From: an uncultured Candidatus Rokubacteria bacterium
Lineage (GTDB): Bacteria; Methylomirabilota; Methylomirabilia; Rokubacteriales; CSP1-6
DNA: 64,000 nucleotides
NCBI GenBank assembly: GCA_963762145.1
Contig: CAVXJS010000009.1
Location: forward strand, 352,001 to 416,000
Direction of reading: 5' to 3'
Position 1 is the stretch's first letter, and every line of letters begins with the position of its first letter. Shown one piece after another: positions 30,257 through 56,014 of this stretch. The position numbers and the translations under genes are program-made. The notes below the pieces were generated by a model, which had not been told where the DNA came from, did not search any database, and worked only from the letters and a program-made list of their open reading frames with translations.

Positions 30257-31284
30257 TGGCCGCCCGGAAGAAGAACCACGACTGGCTCGCCCTGACCGTC
30301 GAGGAGCCCATCGAGCCTGACCTGCCGATCTGCGACCCGCACCACCACCTGTGGGACGGCGAGACCGCCCGCGTCGTCCCGCGCTATCTCCTCGACGAGA
30401 TCCTGGAGGACACCGGGGCCGGTCACAACGTCGTCTCCACCGTGTTCATCGAGTGCGGCGCGATGTTCAAGCCCGACGGGCCGGAAGCGCTCCGCTCCGT
30501 CGGGGAGACCGAGTTCGTGAACGGCATCGCGGCGATGAGCGCCTCCGGCCTCTACGGCAAGACGCGCGTCGCCGCCGGGATCGTGGGCACCGCCCAGCTG
30601 CGCCTGGGCGCGGCCGCCGCGCCGGTGCTCGACGCGCAGATCGCGGCCGGCGGGGGCCGCTTCCGCGGCATCCGCCTGGGCGCGGCCTGGGACGCCGATC
30701 CGGCGGTACCCAATCATCGCACCCGCCCCCCGCAGGGGATGCTCGGGCACGACGACTTCCGCGCCGGCTTCGCCTTGCTGGCGCCGCGACGACTCACCTT
30801 CGAGGCCTGGTGCTATCACCGCCAGATCCCCGACGTGACCGCGCTGGCCCGCGCCTACCCCGACACCACGATCATCCTCGACCACTTCGGCGGGCCGCCG
30901 GGCGTCGGCGCGTATGCGGGCCGGGCCAAGGAGGTCTACGCGGAGTGGCGCGGCTTCGTCACCGAGCTCGCCACGTGTCCCAACGTGGTGGCCAAGCTCG
31001 GCGGCATCAACATGGAGGTCAACGGCTTCGCCTGGCACGAGCGGCCCCGGCCGCCGTCCAGCCAGGAGCTGGCCGACGCCACGCGGCCCTACTACGAGTA
31101 CACCATCGAGAGGTTCGGCGTGGACCGCTGCATGTTCGAGTCGAACTTCCCGGTGGACGCGGTGAGCTGCAGCTACACGGTCTTGTGGAACTCGTTCAAG
31201 CGCCTCACCGCGAAGTACTCGGCGGCCGAGAAAGCCAAGCTCTACCACGACACCGCGGCGCGAGTGTACCGGCTCGCGTCCTAG
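30256..31284 (+). CDS. amidohydrolase-2 family protein (lactonase-like)
   Basis: TGATG coupling; [29 protein letters not shown]. Confidence 0.9.
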
Positions 31285-32213
31285 TCGGCCAGGTCGGCGA
31301 AGAGCGGCGTGCTCAGGTAGCGCTCGCCGAACGAGGGGATGATCACGACGATCAGCTTCCCCGCGCTCTCCGGCCGGCGCGCGACCTCCACCGCGGCCCA
31401 CAGCGCGGCGCCCGACGAGATCCCGACCAGGAGCCCTTCCTCGCGCGCGGCCCGGCGGGCGGTCGCGAAGGCGTCGTCGTTCTTCACCCGCATGATCTCG
31501 TCGTAGATCTTGGTGTTGAGCACCTCGGGCACGAACCCCGCGCCGATGCCCTGGATCGGATGCGGGCCCTTCGCCCCGCCCGACAGGACCGGCGAGGCGT
31601 CGGGCTCCACCGCCACGCAGCGGAAGCTGGGCTTGCGCGCCTTCAGCACCTCGCCGACCCCGGTGATCGTGCCGCCGGTGCCGATGCCGGCCACCAGCAC
31701 GTCGGCCCGACCGTCGGTGTCCCGCCAGATCTCCTCCGCGGTGGTCCGGCGGTGGATCTCCGGGTTCGCCGGGTTCTGGAACTGCTGGGGGATGAAGTAG
31801 CGTGAGTCGCCGGCCGCCAGCTCCTCCGCCCGCTTGATCGCGCCCGCCATGCCCTCGGCGGCCGGAGTGAGGATGAGCTCGGCCCCGTAGGCGCGCAAGA
31901 GCAGCCGCCGCTCCTTGCTCATGCTCTCCGGCATCGTGAGCGCGAGCTTGTAACCCCGGGCCGCGCAGACGAACGCCAGCCCGATGCCGGTATTGCCGCT
32001 GGTCGGCTCGAGGATGATCGTGTCGGGCTTGATCCGACCGGCCTTCTCGGCCGCGTCGATCATGGCCACCCCGATGCGGTCCTTCACGCTGTGGGCCGGG
32101 CTGTAGAACTCGAGCTTGGCCACCACCTGGCCCGCGGCGCCCTCGGTCAGCCGCCGGATGCGCACCAGCGGCGTGTTGCCGACGAGCGCGGTCACGTCCT
32201 CCGCGATGCGCAC
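31281..32213 (-). CDS. cysK: cysteine synthase A
   Basis: VGNTPLV, SVKDR PLP-Lys motif, [34 protein letters not shown]. Confidence 0.95.
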
Positions 32214-32215
32214 GG

Positions 32216-32965
32216 TCAGCGCAGGCCGCCGGCGACGAGCAGCGTCTCGCCGCTCACCCAGCCCGCGTCCTCCGAGGCCAGGAAGACCACCGCCGGGGCG
32301 ATGTCCCCGGGCTGGCCGATCCGGCCGAGCGGCGTCTTGTTCTCGATCTCCTTGCGGAAGTCGCTCTCCATGATGCCGGCGGCGTGGACGCCCTCGGTCT
32401 CCACCATGCCGGGATTGACCGCGTTCACGCGGATGCCGCGCGGACCGAGCTCCTTGGCCAGCACCCCGGTGATGGCGTCCACCGCGGCCTTGGTGGCGGT
32501 GTAGACCGCGGTGTTGGGCGGCATGAGCCGGCTGGCGGTCGAGCTGACGTTGACGATGCTGCCGCCCGTGGCGCCGAAGTGCTTGACCGCTTCCTTCGAG
32601 GCCAGGAGCAGCCCCAGGACGTTCACGTCGAACTGCCGGTGGAAGTGCTCCTCGGTGATGTCCTCGATCGGCTGGAACTCGTAGACCCCCGCATTGTTGA
32701 CGAGGATGTCGAGGCGCCCGAAGGCGCTCCGCGCCTCCGAGAAGAGCCGCGTGATGTCGGCCGGCCGCGCCAGGTCCGCCTGCACCGCGATGGCCCGGCC
32801 ACCGTCGCGGGTGATCTCGGAGACCACGCGGTCCGCTCCGGCCCGGCTCGACGCGTAGTTGACCACGACCGCGGCGCCTTCCGCGGCCAGGTGCTTGGCG
32901 ATCGAGGCGCCGATCCCCTTGGATGCTCCGGTCACGACCGCCACCTTGTCCTTGAGCTTGCCCAT
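32216..32965 (-). CDS. short-chain dehydrogenase/reductase (glucose 1-dehydrogenase-like)
   Basis: [17 protein letters not shown]. Confidence 0.9.
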
Positions 32966-33093
32966 GTCCCAGGTCCTCCGTGTCTCTTTGGATGTCCGGG
33001 AGGCGGCCGGGGTTCCCGCGCGAGGCCGGGGGGAAGTAGAATCCCTCGGGCACGAGGATCCATCTCAACCCACGACGAGTGTTTGGAGGCCGC

Positions 33094-34089
33094 ATGGACC
33101 CCGCTGGCAGCTTGCAGTTCCTCGAGCAGTACGGCGTCCTGATCCTCCCGGCCCTGGTGATCGCCGAGCAGATCGGCATTCCGCTGCCCGCGGTGCCGGC
33201 CCTCCTCGGGGCCGGGGCCCTCGCCGCGCACGGCCGCATCGACGTCCCGCTGCTGGTCGTCGCCATCTCGATCGCGGCCCTGACCACCGATCTCGTCTGG
33301 TACGAGCTCGGCCGGCGGCGCGGCGCGGTGGTCCTGTCGACGCTCTGCCGCCTCTCCCTCGAGCCGGACTCGTGCCTGCGCCGGGCCGAGGACACGTTCG
33401 TCCGTCACGGAGTGCGGGGCATGCTCATCGCGAAGTTCGTCCCCGGGCTGACCACGGTGATGCCGCCCCTCGCAGGGGTCTTCGCGGTCGGCCGCGTGCG
33501 CTTCGTCCTCTACGACCTCGCGGGGGTGCTCCTCTGGGCGGGCACGTGGCTGACGCTGGGATACGTCTTCGCCGACGCCATCACCCTGGTGACCGCCCGG
33601 GCCACCGCCCTCGGGCAGATGCTCGGACTGGTCGTGGTGGGCGCGCTCGCGGCCTACGTCCTGCTCAAGCTGGTGCGCCGCCGTCTCTTTCTCCGGAAGC
33701 TCCGCATGGCGCGCATCTCGCCCGCGGCGCTGAAGCTGCGCCTCGACGGCGGAGAGGACGTCGCGATCATCGATCTGCGGACGCCGCTCGACGTCGCGGC
33801 CACCCCGTACGCGATTCCCGGGAGCCGCTGGCTGGCCGTCGAAGCCATCGACGCGGCGGAGGCGGCGCGGCTCCGCACCCGCGAGGTGGTGCTCTACTGC
33901 GCGTGCCCCAACGAGGCGACGAGCGCCCGGGTGGCGCTGCTCCTCCAGCGGCAGGGCATCACGCGGGTCCGTCCGCTCGAGGGCGGCCTCGCCGCCTGGA
34001 TGGAGCTGGGCTTTCCGGTGCTCGCGGTCGACCCGCCCGCGGTCGCGGTCGACGAGCGCGCGGGCCGCGTCCCGTCGCGAGCCGCGTAG
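33094..34089 (+). CDS. DedA/VTT membrane protein fused to a rhodanese domain
   Basis: [14 protein letters not shown]; C-terminal IIDLR...LYCACPNE...PLEGGLAAW. Confidence 0.9.
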
Positions 34090-34677: not shown

Positions 34678-34754
34678 GCGTTCACTATAGATGATGGCGG
34701 GTGGCGGCTATATCATGTCTCGCGGAGGGAGCCGGCCATGAGGATATCCGCGAC

Positions 34755-35540
34755 GTGCTGAGGACAGGATTTGTCGGCCTGATTCTGCTAGCATCTGGCG
34801 CCATGACCGACATCACGCCCGCCGTCCGCGCCGACCTCGCTCCGACCGGGAAGCTCCGGGCCGCCATCAACTACGGCAACTTCATCCTCGCCACCAAGGA
34901 CAAGGCGACCGGCGAGTCGAGGGGCGCGGCGATCGACCTGACGCAGGAGATCGCGAAGCGCCTTGGCGTCCCGGTCGAGATCGTCGCGTACGACAGCGTG
35001 GCGGTCATGGGCGACGCCGCGCCGAGCGGGGTGTGGGACATCGCGTTCCTCGGGTCCGACCCGGCGCGCGAGAAGATCATGAGCTTCACCGCCGCGTATC
35101 TCGAGATCGAGGCCACCTATCTCGTGCCCGGCGCCTCCCCGCTGCGCACCGCCGCGGAGGTCGACCGGGAGGGTGTGCGGGTGGCCGCGCCGGCGCGGGC
35201 GAACTACGAGCTCTACCTGAGCCGCAACCTCAAGCGCGCGCAGCTCGTGTCCGCGCCGAGCGCGGACGCGGCGTTCGAGCTGCTCGCGACCGGCAAGGTG
35301 GAGGCCCTGGCCGGCCTGACCCAGGGCCTGCTCGGCCTCGCGCCGAAGCTGCCCGGATCGCGCGTGATCGACGGGCGGTTCATGGGCGTGCAGCAGTCCA
35401 TCGCGGTGCCGAAGGGCAAGGACGCCGGCCTGCTCTACCTGCGCGGCGTCGTCGAGGACGCCAAGACGTCCGGGCTCGTGGCCCGCGCCATCGAGCGGAC
35501 CGGCGCGAAGGGCGTCTCGGTGGCGCCGGCCGCGAGGTAG
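34755..35540 (+). CDS. PBP2 / amino-acid ABC-type substrate-binding protein (start uncertain: 34755 or 34803)
   Basis: LAPTGKLRAAINYGN, WDIAFL; hydrophobic leader FVGLILLASGA. Confidence 0.8.
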   Translation: MLRTGFVGLILLASGAMTDITPAVRADLAPTGKLRAAINYGNFILATKDKATGESRGAAIDLTQEIAKRLGVPVEIVAYDSVAVMGDAAPSGVWDIAFLGSDPAREKIMSFTAAYLEIEATYLVPGASPLRTAAEVDREGVRVAAPARANYELYLSRNLKRAQLVSAPSADAAFELLATGKVEALAGLTQGLLGLAPKLPGSRVIDGRFMGVQQSIAVPKGKDAGLLYLRGVVEDAKTSGLVARAIERTGAKGVSVAPAAR

Positions 35541-35579
35541 CGCGGTGGCCACCCCTAACGACCGACAAGGAGAGAGAGC

Positions 35580-36647
35580 ATGGAGATCCCCCGCACGATG
35601 AAGGCGACCGTGCTCGTCGCCCCGCACCGCTTCGAGCTGCTCGAGCAGCCGGTGCCGGTGCCGGGCGACGAGGACGTCCTCGTCCGCGTGCGCGCCTGCG
35701 GCGTCTGAGGGACGGACCTGAAGATCATCCACACCGGCATGCCGAAGATGCCGCCCTACGGCGAGTTCATCTTCGGTCACGAGTACGCGGGCGACGTGGT
35801 CGCCATCGGCCGGACGGTGGACGAGTTTCGGGTGGGCGACCGGGTGGTCGTCGAGGCGCACATGGGCTGCCGCCGCTGCGAGAACTGCATCCGTGGGCTC
35901 TACACCGCCTGTCTGAACTACGGCAACACGAAGCGTGGGCATCGCGCCAACGGGTTCACGACCAACGGGGGGCTCGCCGAGTACGCGGTGAACCACGTCA
36001 ACACGCTGTATCGCATCCCCGACGGGGTGGACTACGACGAGGCGACCGTGGTGATGACCTCGGGCAGCCCGCTCTTCGGCCTCGAGAACGCGGGCGGCTA
36101 CTTCGCCGGCGAGACGGTGGCGGTCCTCGGCCCGGGCCCGATCGGCCTCATGGCCATCCAGCTCGTCAAGGCGCTCGGGGCCACGCGCGTGATCCTCACC
36201 GGCACTCGCCCCTCCCGCCTGGCCATGGGCCGGCAGCTCGGCGCCGACGTCCTCGTCAACAGCCGGGAGACCGATCCGGTGGCCGCGGTGATGGAAGCGA
36301 CCGCCGACAAGGGCGCCGACCTCGTGATCGACTGCGCGGGCGGCGACGATACGTTCGACCAGTCCATCAAGATGGCCAAGTCCGGCGGCAAGGTGCTGCT
36401 GGTGGCCTTCTACCACGGTCCCGTGACCGCCGACGTGAGCCACGCGGTCCGGCGCAACATCACGATCTACACGGAGCGCGGCGAAGGCGGCACCAGCGTG
36501 GGCCGCGCGCTGGCGCTGCTGGCCGCCGGGCGGCTCACCGCCAAGCCGCTCATCACGCACCACTTCCCGCTCAGCCGCGTCCACGAGGCGATGGAAGTCC
36601 TCGAGAAGCGCATCGGCGACCCGCTCAAGGTGGTCTTGCTGCCGTGA
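35580..36647 (+). CDS. Zn-dependent alcohol dehydrogenase (MDR family), predicted selenoprotein with Sec43 at in-frame TGA 35706-35708
   Basis: AAGGAG SD and ATG 35580; MKATVLVAP...VLVRVRACGV-TGA-GTDLKI...GH67E68 reads in frame into ORF 35739-36647; structural-Zn CRRCENC-x7-C; GPGPIG. Confidence 0.85.
35709..35756 (+). promoter_or_regulatory. candidate bacterial SECIS element of the ADH gene
   Basis: CGGCAT(35735-40)-GCCGAAG loop-ATGCCG(35748-53); loop begins with G, 32 nt after the UGA. Confidence 0.45.
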
Positions 36648-37603
36648 GGCGCCCGGCGTGCCGCCGCCTGATTGCGGCCGTGCTCGCGGCGGTCTGCCTG
36701 GTGGCGGGACCGGCGGCCGCGTTTCCCGACCGGCCGCTGGAGCTGACCGTGCTGTTCGGCGCGGGCAGCGCCGCCGACCTCCTCGCCCGCAAGCTGGCCG
36801 AGCTGGCCGGCAAGGGCTTGGGGCAGCCGGTCGCGGTCGTCAATCGCACCGGCGCGGGCGGGGCGCTCGGCTACACGCACGTGAAAGGTCAGAATGCGGA
36901 CGGCTACGCGCTCGTCTGGAACTCCAACAGCGTCAGCACCGCGTATCACGCCGGCAACATGAAGCTCGACTACACCGCGTTCGCCGGGGTGGCGGCGCTG
37001 ACCAGCGAGCCGGTCTCCCTCGCGGTCAAGGCCGACGCGCCGTGGAAGGACATCCGGGATCTGCTCGCTCACGCGAAGGCGAATCCGGGCCAGGTGCGCG
37101 TCGGCAACTCCGGCCGGGGCAGCTTCACCCATCTCATGGCGGTCGCGCTCGAGAACCGGGCCGGCGTCAAGCTCACCCACGTGCCGTTCGGCCGTGAGCT
37201 GGCGGTGACCACGGTGCTCGGCGACAAGATCGAGGCGAGCGTGCAGCTTCCGGCCGAGATCATGACTCAGGTGACCGGCCGCCAGGTGCGGGTGCTCGCG
37301 ATCACCGGGGACCGGCGGCTGGCCAGCCTCCCGGAGGTCCCCACCCTGAAGGAGAGCGGGGTGGATCTCACCATGTCGCTCTGGCGCGGCATCGCGGTGC
37401 CGAAGGGCACGCCGGAGGCGGTGATCGCGCGGCTCGAGCGCGCATTCACGCAGGCCGCCCAGGACGCCGAGTTTCGCGACTTCGCGGCCCGCATGGGAAC
37501 GGTGATCGACGTCCGGGGCGCCCGGGACTTCGACGCGTTCATGGCGCGCGACGACCGGGACATCGCGGCGCTGATGGAGCAGATCGGGCTCAAGAAACAG
37601 TAG
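36644..37603 (+). CDS. tctC: TTT substrate-binding protein TctC/Bug
   Basis: GTGA overlap with the ADH; FPDRPLELTVLFGAGSAAD, NRTGAGG, PEVPTLKESG. Confidence 0.9.
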   Translation: MRRPACRRLIAAVLAAVCLVAGPAAAFPDRPLELTVLFGAGSAADLLARKLAELAGKGLGQPVAVVNRTGAGGALGYTHVKGQNADGYALVWNSNSVSTAYHAGNMKLDYTAFAGVAALTSEPVSLAVKADAPWKDIRDLLAHAKANPGQVRVGNSGRGSFTHLMAVALENRAGVKLTHVPFGRELAVTTVLGDKIEASVQLPAEIMTQVTGRQVRVLAITGDRRLASLPEVPTLKESGVDLTMSLWRGIAVPKGTPEAVIARLERAFTQAAQDAEFRDFAARMGTVIDVRGARDFDAFMARDDRDIAALMEQIGLKKQ

Positions 37604-37604
37604 C

Positions 37605-38045
37605 GTGAGCCCGCGCTCCGCCGCGCGCCGCGATCAGTGGAGCGCCGTCGGCCTGGCGGTCCTCGCGCTGGGCTACCTGCTCGCCGGCCGCCGCTACCCG
37701 CTCGACACGCTCGCCACGCCCGGGCCGGGCGTCTTCCCCCTCGCGGCCGGACTCGCGCTGCTGGCACTGGCCGTCTGGCAGCTCCTCGCGGCCCGGCGCG
37801 CGGCGCCGGACCCCGCCGACGGCGGCGCCGTGCCGCGGGCCCCGCTGCTCATGGCCGCGGTGCTCGCGCTCTACGCGGCCACCCTGCCCGTGCTCGGCTT
37901 CATGCTCACGTCGCTCGGGCTCGTGTTCGTCGCCGCCCGGCTCATGGGACTCGGCGGCTGGTGGCGACCGGCCGCGCTCGCGCTCGGCGTCACCGCGGCC
38001 AGCCGTCTGCTCTTCGGCACCTGGCTGGGTGTGCCCCTGCCATGA
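37605..38045 (+). CDS. tctB: TTT small permease TctB
   Basis: PGPGVFP motif, 4 TM segments, C-terminal LGVPLP. Confidence 0.85.
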   Translation: MSPRSAARRDQWSAVGLAVLALGYLLAGRRYPLDTLATPGPGVFPLAAGLALLALAVWQLLAARRAAPDPADGGAVPRAPLLMAAVLALYAATLPVLGFMLTSLGLVFVAARLMGLGGWWRPAALALGVTAASRLLFGTWLGVPLP

Positions 38046-39523
38046 GCGAGCTGTTCGTCGCGCTGACGCCCGGCAACCTCCTGGCCTGCTTCGCGGGCGT
38101 CGTCCTCGGCACCATCGTGGGCGTGCTGCCCGGGCTGGGGCCGGCCGGCGCCATGGCGCTCGTCCTGCCGCTGACGATCAAGCTCGGGCCGACGGCCGGG
38201 CTCATCATGCTGGCCGGGATCTACTACGGCTCGATGTACGGAGGCTCGACGACGTCGATCCTCGTCAACGTCCCCGGGGAGGCGGCCAGCGTCGTCACCA
38301 CCATCGACGGCTATCGTCTCGCGCGGAAGGGACGGGCCGGGGCCGCCCTGGCCATCGCCGCGATCGCGTCCTTCGTGGCCGGCACCTTCAGCGTGGTCGC
38401 GCTTCAGGTCGCGGCGCCGCTCGTCTCCCGCCTCGCGCTGGCCTTCGGCCCCGCCGAGTACTTCGCGTTCGCGCTGCTGGGCGTCACCGTGCTGGCCAAC
38501 CTGACCGGCGGCGCGCGCGCGAAGTCGCTGGCCATGGTCGTGACCGGCGTCATGCTGTCCACCGTCGGCATGGATCCCCTCGGCGGCACCGTGCGCTTCA
38601 CCTTCGACGTGGCGGGCGCCCAGGCCGGGCTCAGCTTCATCGCGGTGACGGCCGGCCTGTTCGGGGTCGCCGAGGTGCTGGCCACGATGGCCGCGCCGGG
38701 GGCCGCCGCGCCGGTGGCGCGCGTGCGCTTCCGCGCGCTGTACCCGAGCCGCGAGGAGCTGCGGCGCTCGGTGCCGCCGATGCTGCGCGGCACCGTGCTG
38801 GGCTTCCTGGTCGGCCTCATCCCCGGCCCGGCGGCGACGATCGCGTCCTTCGTGTCGTACGGCGTGGAGAAGCGCGTGTCGCGCTACCGGCACGAGATCG
38901 GGACCGGCGCCATCGAGGGGGTGGCCGGGCCCGAGGCGGCCAACAACGCGGCGGCCGGCGGCGGCATGGTCCCGCTGCTTGCGCTCGGCCTGCCGTTCAC
39001 GCCATCCACCGCCGTCCTGCTCAGCGGCATGCTCCTCATGAGCGTCACGCCGGGTCCGTTCCTGCTCCGCGATCACCCCCAGGTGTTCTGGGGGGTCATC
39101 GGCAGCTTCTACATCGGCAACGTGATGCTGCTGCTCCTCAACCTGCCGCTGGTCGGCATCTTCGCCCGGGTGGCCACCGTCCCGCCGCGCTACCTGATGC
39201 CGGGCGTCCTGGTGCTGTGCGCGGTCGCGGCCTACTCCGACAACAACAACGCGTTCGACGTCTGGGTGATGGTGGGCGCCGGCGTCCTCGGCTACGCGAT
39301 GCGCGGGCTCGGTTATGATCCGGCGCCCCTGGTGCTCGGCCTCGTGCTGGGCCCGGTCCTGGAGCGCTCGCTGCTCCAGGCGCTCACGATCGGGCGCGGC
39401 GACCTGCGTGAGCTGTGGTCATCGGCGCCCGCCACGATCATGCTGGCCGCCACCGCGGTGGTGCTCCTGGCGCCCGCCGCTCGGGCGGGCCTGCGACTCT
39501 GGACCCGCGCGCGCGTGTCGTGA
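38042..39523 (+). CDS. tctA: TTT large permease TctA
   Basis: IYYGSMYGGSTTSILVNVPGEAASVVTTIDGY; GPEAANNA. Confidence 0.9.
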   Translation: MSELFVALTPGNLLACFAGVVLGTIVGVLPGLGPAGAMALVLPLTIKLGPTAGLIMLAGIYYGSMYGGSTTSILVNVPGEAASVVTTIDGYRLARKGRAGAALAIAAIASFVAGTFSVVALQVAAPLVSRLALAFGPAEYFAFALLGVTVLANLTGGARAKSLAMVVTGVMLSTVGMDPLGGTVRFTFDVAGAQAGLSFIAVTAGLFGVAEVLATMAAPGAAAPVARVRFRALYPSREELRRSVPPMLRGTVLGFLVGLIPGPAATIASFVSYGVEKRVSRYRHEIGTGAIEGVAGPEAANNAAAGGGMVPLLALGLPFTPSTAVLLSGMLLMSVTPGPFLLRDHPQVFWGVIGSFYIGNVMLLLLNLPLVGIFARVATVPPRYLMPGVLVLCAVAAYSDNNNAFDVWVMVGAGVLGYAMRGLGYDPAPLVLGLVLGPVLERSLLQALTIGRGDLRELWSSAPATIMLAATAVVLLAPAARAGLRLWTRARVS

Positions 39524-55615: not shown

Positions 55616-56014
55616 CTACCCCGGCTGCGCCCGGCGTACGGGCACGTCGACCGGGACCTTCATCGCGCGGCTGATCCGGCAGCCCTCGGCCGCCTCCTGG
55701 AGTCGGGCGAGCTGGGCGTCGTCGAACGTGCCCTCCACGACCAGCTCTCCCTCGACGCCGGTGATCTGCCCCTGGGCCTCCGTCGCGGTGAGGCGGGCCC
55801 GGAGGCCGCGCACCACCCACTGCTGGCGCTCGGCGAACCGCCGAACGTTGTTGATGCGTCAGGCGCCGATGGCGCCCAGGAGGAGCTCCGCGGGCGAGGG
55901 CGCCGCGTCCCCGCCCCCGGCCTCCGCCGGGGCGTCCATCTCCAGGCGGTGCGGGCCCGCCGCTCCCTCGACCTTCATGCCCGCCACCCACTGCACCGTC
56001 ACCGCTCTGCCCAT
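55616..56014 (-). CDS. OsmC/Ohr-like protein, predicted selenoprotein with Sec52 at in-frame TGA 55861-55859
   Basis: AGGAGG SD and ATG 56014; [42 protein letters not shown] in frame with ORF 55616-55816, which carries the second Cys ([11 protein letters not shown]). Confidence 0.85.
55827..55858 (-). promoter_or_regulatory. bacterial SECIS element of the OsmC-like gene
   Basis: UGA, 11-nt spacer, then a 9-bp stem CGUUCGGCG/CGCCGAGCG (one G-U pair) with a GUU apical loop. Confidence 0.7.

Follow-up and report, generated by a model that had tools for sequence, protein, structure and literature searches.

A very probable new selenoprotein family of zinc-dependent dehydrogenases in Rokubacteria, with an atypical, looped-out candidate SECIS element

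Zinc-dependent enzymes of the medium-chain dehydrogenase/reductase (MDR) superfamily such as L-threonine 3-dehydrogenase (TDH), sorbitol dehydrogenase and scyllo-inosose 3-dehydrogenase (IolM) are of the Cys type: in the threonine/sorbitol-dehydrogenase branch, PMC9512048 gives the ligands of the catalytic zinc as a motif Cys, a His and a Glu. In other metalloenzymes, FdhA (Mo or W) and [NiFeSe] hydrogenase (Ni), selenocysteine (Sec) replaces a metal-binding Cys, and Cys-type orthologues coexist with the Sec forms (PMC13188914). Here we describe a gene from an uncultured Candidatus Rokubacteria bacterium, located in a 64,000-nucleotide stretch of contig CAVXJS010000009.1 (hereafter the window), that encodes an MDR zinc-dependent dehydrogenase and carries an in-frame UGA at codon 43, in the column of the first catalytic-zinc Cys. 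It very probably represents a new selenoprotein family with an atypical, looped-out selenocysteine insertion sequence (SECIS). To the full reading, a Sec43 MDR dehydrogenase whose UGA is recoded through a distal element made of a long-range helix (P1) and a hairpin (P2), we assign a probability of about 0.82.

The consensus for a bacterial SECIS (bSECIS) consists of an upper stem of 4-16 bp, a loop of 3-9 nucleotides with a G in its first two positions, a minimum free energy (MFE) of -7.5 kcal/mol or lower and a UGA-to-loop spacing of 16-37 nucleotides (PMC13188914). Physical nearness to the mRNA entrance suffices in engineered ribosomes that carry a SECIS on helix h16 of the 16S rRNA (PMC10945757). 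Such engineered, displaced elements are artificial E. coli constructs, whereas the one proposed here would be natural, lie within a coding sequence and be held in place by pairing of the mRNA itself. A SECIS in the 3' untranslated region is also said to have been the subject of work in E. coli by Su et al. in 2005.

From the ATG at 35580 to the stop TGA at 36645-36647 the dehydrogenase frame is open, its sole interruption being the TGA of codon 43, in the context A-C40-G-V-[TGA]-G-T-D-L-K (Table 1). The table-11 list of open reading frames (ORFs) places the start of the gene at 35739; an earlier note on this DNA had argued that this start is late and that translation begins at the upstream ATG behind its Shine-Dalgarno sequence, and inspection of the sequence agrees on both counts. 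The read-through protein matches ADH_N (PF08240) over residues 29-148 with 97 bits and ADH_zinc_N (PF00107) over residues 187-298 with 101 bits. Its best NCBIfam matches, IolM (NF041097, 212.9 against a cut-off of 450) and TDH (TIGR00692, 209.5 against 458.35), both stay below half of their cut-offs. Neither equivalog is thus reached, which places the protein in the polyol/threonine-dehydrogenase branch of the MDR superfamily with no named equivalog.

Alignment to solved structures places residue 43 at the motif Cys of CGTD/CGSD (2d8a, 5vm2) and GHE on GHE; the column of codon 43 is an invariant Cys in alignment A6. His67, Glu68 and the four structural Cys are all present and invariant; completing the catalytic triad requires that the UGA be decoded as Sec or Cys. 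Translation, Pfam matches and alignment together uphold the central observation of the earlier note, a TGA at the catalytic-zinc Cys column of an otherwise intact MDR gene, and the GHE, four-Cys and GPGPIG motifs that it listed were all located in the read-through frame. Cys-type TDH, sorbitol dehydrogenase and IolM (2d8a, 2dfv, 1pl6, 1e3j, 5vm2) have the same ADH_N plus ADH_zinc_N architecture and share with our protein the GHE, the four-Cys zinc lobe and a GxGxxG motif. They differ from it in three respects: here a UGA codes for the first zinc ligand, the equivalog cut-offs are not reached, and the gene belongs to a tripartite tricarboxylate transporter operon.

Table 1. Coordinates of the features discussed. 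Positions refer to the window, except where a contig (C) of the source genome, G000, is named.
Feature	Position	Strand	Remark
Shine-Dalgarno-like AAGGAG	35567..35572	+	7 nt 5' of the ATG; read from sequence
MDR zinc-dependent dehydrogenase gene	35580..36647	+	355 codons plus TGA stop; codon 43 is an in-frame TGA
P0, 5' strand	35698..35702	+	pairs with 35866-35870; RNAalifold
In-frame UGA, candidate Sec codon	35706..35708	+	codon 43; catalytic-zinc Cys column
P1, 5' strand	35715..35732	+	nt 9-26 after the U of UGA; RNAalifold and MFE fold
Local hairpin CGGCAT/ATGCCG (earlier note)	35735..35753	+	6 bp, 7-nt loop; inside the P1-enclosed domain
G66-H67-E68, remaining catalytic-zinc ligands	35775..35783	+	invariant in alignment A6; aligned with GHE of solved homologues
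P1, 3' strand	35817..35834	+	nt 111-128; codons 80-85, includes TTT of Phe83
P2 hairpin GGCGACCGGGTGGTCGTC	35835..35852	+	18 nt; 7-bp stem, 4-nt GGGT loop; nt 129-146
P0, 3' strand	35866..35870	+	RNAalifold
Structural-zinc lobe Cys97/Cys100/Cys103/Cys111	35868..35912	+	4/4 invariant in alignment A6
GPGPIG dinucleotide-binding motif	36129..36146	+	G184, P185, G186, G189 invariant in alignment A6
SBP_bac_3 solute-binding protein gene	34701..35540	+	5' of the dehydrogenase
tctC	36644..37603	+	PF03401, 164 bits; GTG start overlaps the dehydrogenase stop
tctA, large membrane subunit of tripartite tricarboxylate transporter	37637..39523	+	PF01970, 491 bits
OsmC-like gene, one in-frame TGA	55643-55915 (G000 C9:407643-407915)	-	
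FdhA, one TGA	G000 C11:726951-730043	+	
SelD, one TGA	G000 C11:419505-420437	+	
Second SelD copy, without TGA	G000 C14:136744-137655	-	

Is the TGA peculiar to one assembly? Our orthologue set comprises 109 distinct full-length coding sequences (CDS) from Rokubacteria/Methylomirabilota with at least 79% identity, duplicates having been removed. Codon 43 is TGA in 76 of them and TGC or TGT in the other 33, with no further alternative, and every sequence is 1068 nucleotides long, without any indel or additional internal stop; among the 76, L028 (= L075) belongs to a genome marked as unpublished. When 61 related genomes were searched, 6 of them, from 5 genera and 2 families, proved to have orthologues with exactly one TGA (81-100% identity), and a homologue at 69% identity had no stop. 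The scan of species-representative genomes returned 80 loci; the codon-43 alignment has 90 rows, one of which (L120) does not cover the codon, and the 89 rows scored show TGA 30 times, TGC/TGT 59 times and nothing else. From metagenomes, 80 loci were kept of at least 499 relatives, and after two partial ones (L153, L202) were dropped the 78 full-length loci gave TGA in 56 cases, TGC in 19 and TGT in 3. More distant homologues, at 61% identity or less, all have Cys (Desulfobacterota, Spirochaetes, Bacillota, Bradyrhizobium). That 76 of the 109 distinct orthologues, drawn from many assemblies, share a TGA at this codon is beyond chance. The earlier note had proposed to check whether the TGA was private to one genome, which it is not, and whether homologues with both Cys and TGA occur at this column, which they do. 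An in-frame UGA facing Cys in homologues, a criterion by which selenoproteins are recognised, is what we observe here.

These sequences also bear on the most ordinary account of the locus, that it is a pseudogene, that the enzyme is a truncated one initiated at Met54 or Met57, or that the TGA is an assembly error. Gene callers treat it in this manner: in public databases the TGA forms appear as proteins of 299, 302 or 309 residues, named 'zinc-binding dehydrogenase' or 'L-iditol 2-dehydrogenase', and the ORF start at 35739 is of the same kind. However, besides the recurrence of the TGA and the absence of other stops and indels from all 109 sequences, the ratio of non-synonymous to synonymous substitution (dN/dS) calculated from the 76 TGA forms amounts to 0.171 over codons 1-42 and 0.165 over codons 44-53, between the TGA and Met54, compared with 0.116 for codons 54-355 and 0.117 for everything downstream of the UGA (synonymous divergence pS about 0.33-0.39). 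Such low values on both sides indicate that the N-terminus and the stretch from the TGA to Met54 are translated in frame. A product starting at Met54 would moreover be deprived of the first zinc ligand and of part of ADH_N. Truncation, decay or assembly error is thus scarcely credible.

In a careful tree computed with column 43 masked, the basal branches of the clade all carry TGA forms, and Cys is the state of the outgroups. The tree requires six changes between Sec and Cys, of which at least five are forced by starred branches. The simplest history has Sec gained once, on the clade's stem, with several later reversions to Cys.

Two side observations arose from the orthologue set. One TGA form, L056 (= L026, genome G034/G063), has GAT (Asp) at codon 67, so that G-D-E replaces G-H-E, and its close metagenome relative L164 has CAT (His) at that codon; Asp67 may reflect a fault in the assembly or else natural variation of the ligand. 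Four gene contigs (L071, L080, L081 and L082; three TGA, one TGC) come from metagenome-assembled genomes (MAGs) labelled Anaeromyxobacter, Sulfotelmatobacter, Miltoncostaeaceae and Actinomycetes. L071 and L080 are placed inside the Rokubacteria clade on the tree, and the four labels reflect either mis-binning or recent transfer.

The source genome (G000, 88% complete) has what is needed to decode UGA as Sec. It contains selA (577 bits), selB (363 bits), selD (341 bits), which contains one TGA of its own, and a tRNA-Sec (69 bits) whose anticodon, UCA, is the only one of its kind among 68 tRNAs; selA, selB and tRNA-Sec form one cluster on the same contig as the window, with selB and selC at C9:751777-756726. 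The machinery that the earlier note had asked for is therefore present. The TGA-bearing candidate selenoprotein genes that we can name in this genome are the dehydrogenase, FdhA, SelD and three OsmC-like genes, one of them in the window and two others on contigs C14 and C19; OsmC-like proteins are a known selenoprotein family. The FdhA, SelD and OsmC genes have ordinary local hairpins with loops 21-28 nucleotides from the U of UGA, a strong one in the case of the OsmC-like gene of the window (8-bp stem, GTT loop at about 23 nucleotides). Among 22 other genomes with the TGA form, selA scored above its cut-off in 19, and in a further one (G073) selB and tRNA-Sec are accompanied by part of selA, at the end of a contig. 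On this sequence evidence it is highly probable that the dehydrogenase gene is a real selenoprotein gene, with Sec insertion predicted at codon 43.

The dehydrogenase's own stop codon is also TGA, so recoding at codon 43 must depend on context. We applied RNAalifold to 57 distinct segments of TGA forms, with 28 Cys forms as the comparison set. The TGA forms yield an arrangement of three elements that the Cys forms do not yield: a closing helix P0, the long-range helix P1 of 16-17 bp, which loops out about 84 nucleotides of coding sequence, and the hairpin P2 immediately 3' of it. Single-sequence MFE folds of the window's own sequence contain this arrangement too. Over the whole structure, 98.4% of cells are paired in TGA forms (n = 57) against 86.0% in Cys forms (n = 28). 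The figures are 97.6% and 83.5% for P1, 100% and 86.7% for P2, and 98.6% and 92.9% for P0, whose evidence is weak because its pairing is mostly fixed by the amino-acid sequence. When partners were slid by 1-3 columns as a control, at most 49.4% (TGA) and 50.3% (Cys) of cells were paired. The P2 hairpin is invariant in all 76 TGA forms and decays in Cys forms, where two of its pairs are broken in 10 and 11 of the 28 sequences. Likewise in P1, 27 of 28 Cys forms lack the A-U pair of Phe83 and 18 of 28 the G-C pair of Leu47, and a Cys outgroup (L030, 69% identity) has only 9 of 16 P1 pairs and 5 of 7 P2 pairs. Two pairs show compensatory changes in TGA forms: the first is found as C-G (34), U-G (16) or U-A (6), the second as A-U (44), G-U (10) or G-C (3), and the three G-C cases correspond to three Leu83 variants (CTT), all with AAG.

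Codon use points to the same helix. We compared synonymous codons between TGA and Cys forms at 298 positions, and codons 83, 45, 48 and 47 rank 1, 2, 3 and 5 for the difference. At Phe83, which heads the list, 72 of 73 TGA forms use TTT and 32 of 33 Cys forms use TTC. Lys48 is AAA in 57 of 76 TGA forms and AAG in all 33 Cys forms, while Leu47 is CTG in 75 of 76 TGA forms and divided between CTC (16) and CTG (15) in Cys forms. The differences at Phe83, Lys48 and Leu47 are accounted for by the single helix P1. Codons 86-91, which form P2, have a third-position diversity of 0.000 in TGA forms, the lowest of 320 six-codon windows (gene mean 0.301), compared with 0.347 for the same window in Cys forms. 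Between the UGA and P2, sites that are unpaired keep a diversity of 0.47-0.62 in TGA forms, which speaks against a sweep of this segment in the recent past. On its own, P2 folds at -10.2 kcal/mol (z = -3.12) and satisfies the loop, stem, leading-G and energy rules of the bSECIS consensus; it resembles the local SECIS hairpins of the FdhA, SelD and OsmC genes of the same genome. We consider it likely that the P1/P2 domain is the functional recoding element. P2 is the best candidate for the SECIS core and, on balance, probably the site bound by SelB.

A hairpin much nearer to the UGA had been put forward in the earlier note, and it could be the functional SECIS of a genuine selenoprotein gene, with P1/P2 as an accessory that slows the ribosome or hinders release factor 2, or with some other purpose. 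This local hairpin exists as drawn, and in the window's own sequence it satisfies every bSECIS criterion, spacing included: 6 bp, a 7-nucleotide loop that begins with G and starts 32 nucleotides after the UGA, and -7.8 kcal/mol (z = -3.26). Its closing pair covaries (C-G 21, G-C 8, U-G 2). However, it is not specific to TGA forms, with 90.9% of its cells paired in these and 91.4% in Cys forms. It is kept equally in both because it is encoded by conserved Gly-Met-Pro-x-Met-Pro codons, and thus is not the discriminating element. Among TGA forms, the closing pair is mismatched in 15 of 46 and two stem pairs are broken in 5 of 46, whereas the strongest TGA-specific constraints all lie in P1 and P2. 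A conserved structure downstream of the UGA, which the earlier note had expected, is thus found and is TGA-specific, but it is P1/P2 and not the local hairpin, whose role as the SECIS we regard as unlikely.

Other local folds were less telling. The 91 nucleotides after the UGA, folded alone, give an uninformative z of -0.44. A small hairpin containing the UGA itself (columns 4-8/14-18 of alignment A2) is paired in 94.8% of cells in TGA forms and 76.3% in Cys forms; this difference comes from one site, the third base of Thr45, there is no real covariation, and the hairpin competes with no other fold.

Several observations count against the proposal that Sec43 is inserted by means of P1/P2, some of them concerning the RNA and others the distribution of Sec machinery. 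The loop of P2 lies 133 nucleotides after the UGA, far outside the 16-37 of the bSECIS consensus, and proximity would have to come from the long-range helix. In Rfam, the region 35600-35950 has no match to a SECIS family at E-values up to 10 (its four matches are to unrelated families and due to chance), and we found no natural bacterial precedent for a looped-out SECIS in the literature accessible to us. The purine preference of Thr45 (35712-35714; ACG or ACA in 72 of 76 TGA forms, ACC in 27 of 33 Cys forms) is outside the model, as this base is unpaired, at the junction 6 nucleotides after the UGA. The 138-nucleotide P1+P2 domain is very stable (-70 kcal/mol, z = -3.39, none of 200 shuffles as stable, centroid identical to the MFE fold), with boundaries that were picked after the structure was known, and the whole 174-nucleotide segment alone is not unusually stable (z = -1.14). 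The covariation score and the number of double changes in TGA forms were matched by none of 500 shuffles, a control that can overstate since the sequences are related. The starred branches of the careful tree provide only 4 independent contrasts between Sec and Cys; the U of codon 83 goes in the same direction in about 3.9 of the 4 and the exact P2 in about 3.4, neither ever in the opposite one, with p = 0.125 for codon 83 and a range of 0.125 to 0.25 when both are considered. A quick DNA tree of 109 rows gives only 2 independent contrasts.

As to the machinery, two of the 22 TGA-form genomes, G064 and G077 (unpublished), show neither selA nor selB nor tRNA-Sec. The three are clustered in G000, so the loss of one contig could account for this. 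Together with an RNA element that is atypical for a SECIS, these two MAGs are what favours another account, in which read-through of the UGA involves no selenium but a near-cognate tRNA or a programmed mechanism, with Trp, Cys or Arg at position 43 and the RNA fold as a stimulator. It is difficult to reconcile with several facts: only Cys codons alternate with TGA at column 43, as is characteristic of Sec/Cys exchange; no tRNA of G000 other than tRNA-Sec has the anticodon UCA; selA is present above cut-off in the great majority of TGA-form genomes, with the partial set of G073 in addition; neither Trp nor Arg could act as a ligand of the catalytic zinc; and P2 has the shape of a SECIS hairpin. 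We hold selenium-free read-through to be very improbable.

The Cys forms, for their part, live in Sec-competent hosts. Of 11 Cys-form genomes, 8 have selA above cut-off, and among the 5 such genomes searched for FdhA, 4 have it with an in-frame TGA; we find no link between the Cys form and missing Sec machinery in these two samples. This implies that Sec is dispensable for the enzyme, which counts against our reading, and that reversion to Cys is not a consequence of losing the Sec trait. A separate observation concerns three long-read MAGs with the Cys form (G083, G089, G093). Their selA matches come in two adjacent pieces, one with a TAG, and their FdhA matches are likewise fragmented with the TGA retained; the split selA looks more like a product of frameshifts in the assembly than like a sign that the Sec system is decaying.

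How might Sec insertion directed by P1/P2 work? With the UGA in the A site, the first bases of P1 would already be inside the ribosome, and what remains of the helix would keep P2 within a few nucleotides of the site where the mRNA enters. There SelB, loaded with Sec-tRNA-Sec, could bind P2 and deliver Sec, so that UGA 43 would be decoded by the host's SelA, SelB, SelD and tRNA-Sec. The product would be a full-length, NAD(P)-dependent MDR dehydrogenase of 355 residues in the threonine/sorbitol/inosose-dehydrogenase branch. Its Sec43 would replace the Cys that binds the catalytic zinc and, judging from the alignment to solved homologues, would share the metal with His67 and Glu68. What Sec would bring to the enzyme is a matter of conjecture: a lower pKa, a softer ligand, a zinc ligand resistant to irreversible oxidation, or a tuned Lewis acidity of the zinc. 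This would parallel the role of Sec in FdhA and [NiFeSe] hydrogenase as described in PMC13188914, with the difference that the metal would here be zinc, a redox-inert Lewis acid. It is also possible that C40-x-x-U43 forms a reversible selenenylsulfide that releases or protects the zinc, which would make the enzyme redox-switched.

The genomic neighbourhood suggests a catabolic function. The gene for a solute-binding protein precedes the dehydrogenase, and the tctC and tctA genes of a tripartite tricarboxylate transporter follow it. The coupling to tctC through GTGA that the earlier note had pointed out holds, the GTG at 36644 overlapping the stop codon and PF03401 confirming the identity of the gene. 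TctC, with TctA where the locus is long enough, lies 3' of the dehydrogenase in 22 of 35 clade loci, for TGA and Cys forms alike. In a Spirochaetia Cys homologue (L104) the order is dehydrogenase, xylose-isomerase-like TIM barrel, TctC, TctB and TctA, and in one Rokubacteria subclade an SBP_bac_5 protein is found 3' of the dehydrogenase instead. Co-transcription with the TctC-TctA uptake system implies that the dehydrogenase probably oxidises an imported polyol or hydroxy-acid. Our best guess for its role is the catabolism of an imported polyol, sugar acid or hydroxy-acid. Farther upstream, the window contains a fusion of a VTT domain with a rhodanese (33079-34089, forward strand) and a long ORF ending in a pyridoxal-phosphate-dependent (PALP) domain (31281-33395, reverse strand). 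Rhodanese domains are common in sulfur and selenium trafficking.

The earlier note had suspected that the family might be undescribed. In keeping with this, the 119 families of prokaryotic selenoproteins tabulated by a 2026 review (PMC13188914) include no MDR or PF08240/PF00107 entry. The accessible parts of the deep-Sep and BSepDB papers mention no MDR selenoprotein, though their supplementary lists could hold one, and our literature searches on MDR or zinc-dependent alcohol dehydrogenase selenoproteins returned none described, with the same proviso for supplementary tables. Of the 120 database rows listed, not one bears a selenoprotein name. Public entries in which this gene is cut short at Met54 or Met57 and called an ordinary dehydrogenase number in the hundreds.

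Somewhat short of an even chance, in our estimate, is the more ambitious proposition that this is the first natural enzyme with a selenolate on a catalytic zinc and, at the same time, that its UGA is recoded by a new class of bacterial SECIS, in which a distal SelB hairpin is docked by a long-range helix. Metal-binding Sec is known from redox metals (Mo, W, Ni), and Sec on the zinc of an alcohol-dehydrogenase fold would be new; natural Cys orthologues with 92-94% identity offer ready-made controls for the role of selenium. The RNA evidence suggests that a bacterial SECIS need not adjoin the UGA in primary sequence. Such an element would relax a rule used in selenoprotein-finding software and in the design of recombinant selenoproteins, and, if this holds in general, scans limited to 16-37 nucleotides after the UGA systematically miss a class of bacterial selenoproteins. 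For the Rokubacteria, an uncultured phylum in whose soil members the gene is common, it would add a catabolic enzyme to the selenoproteome.

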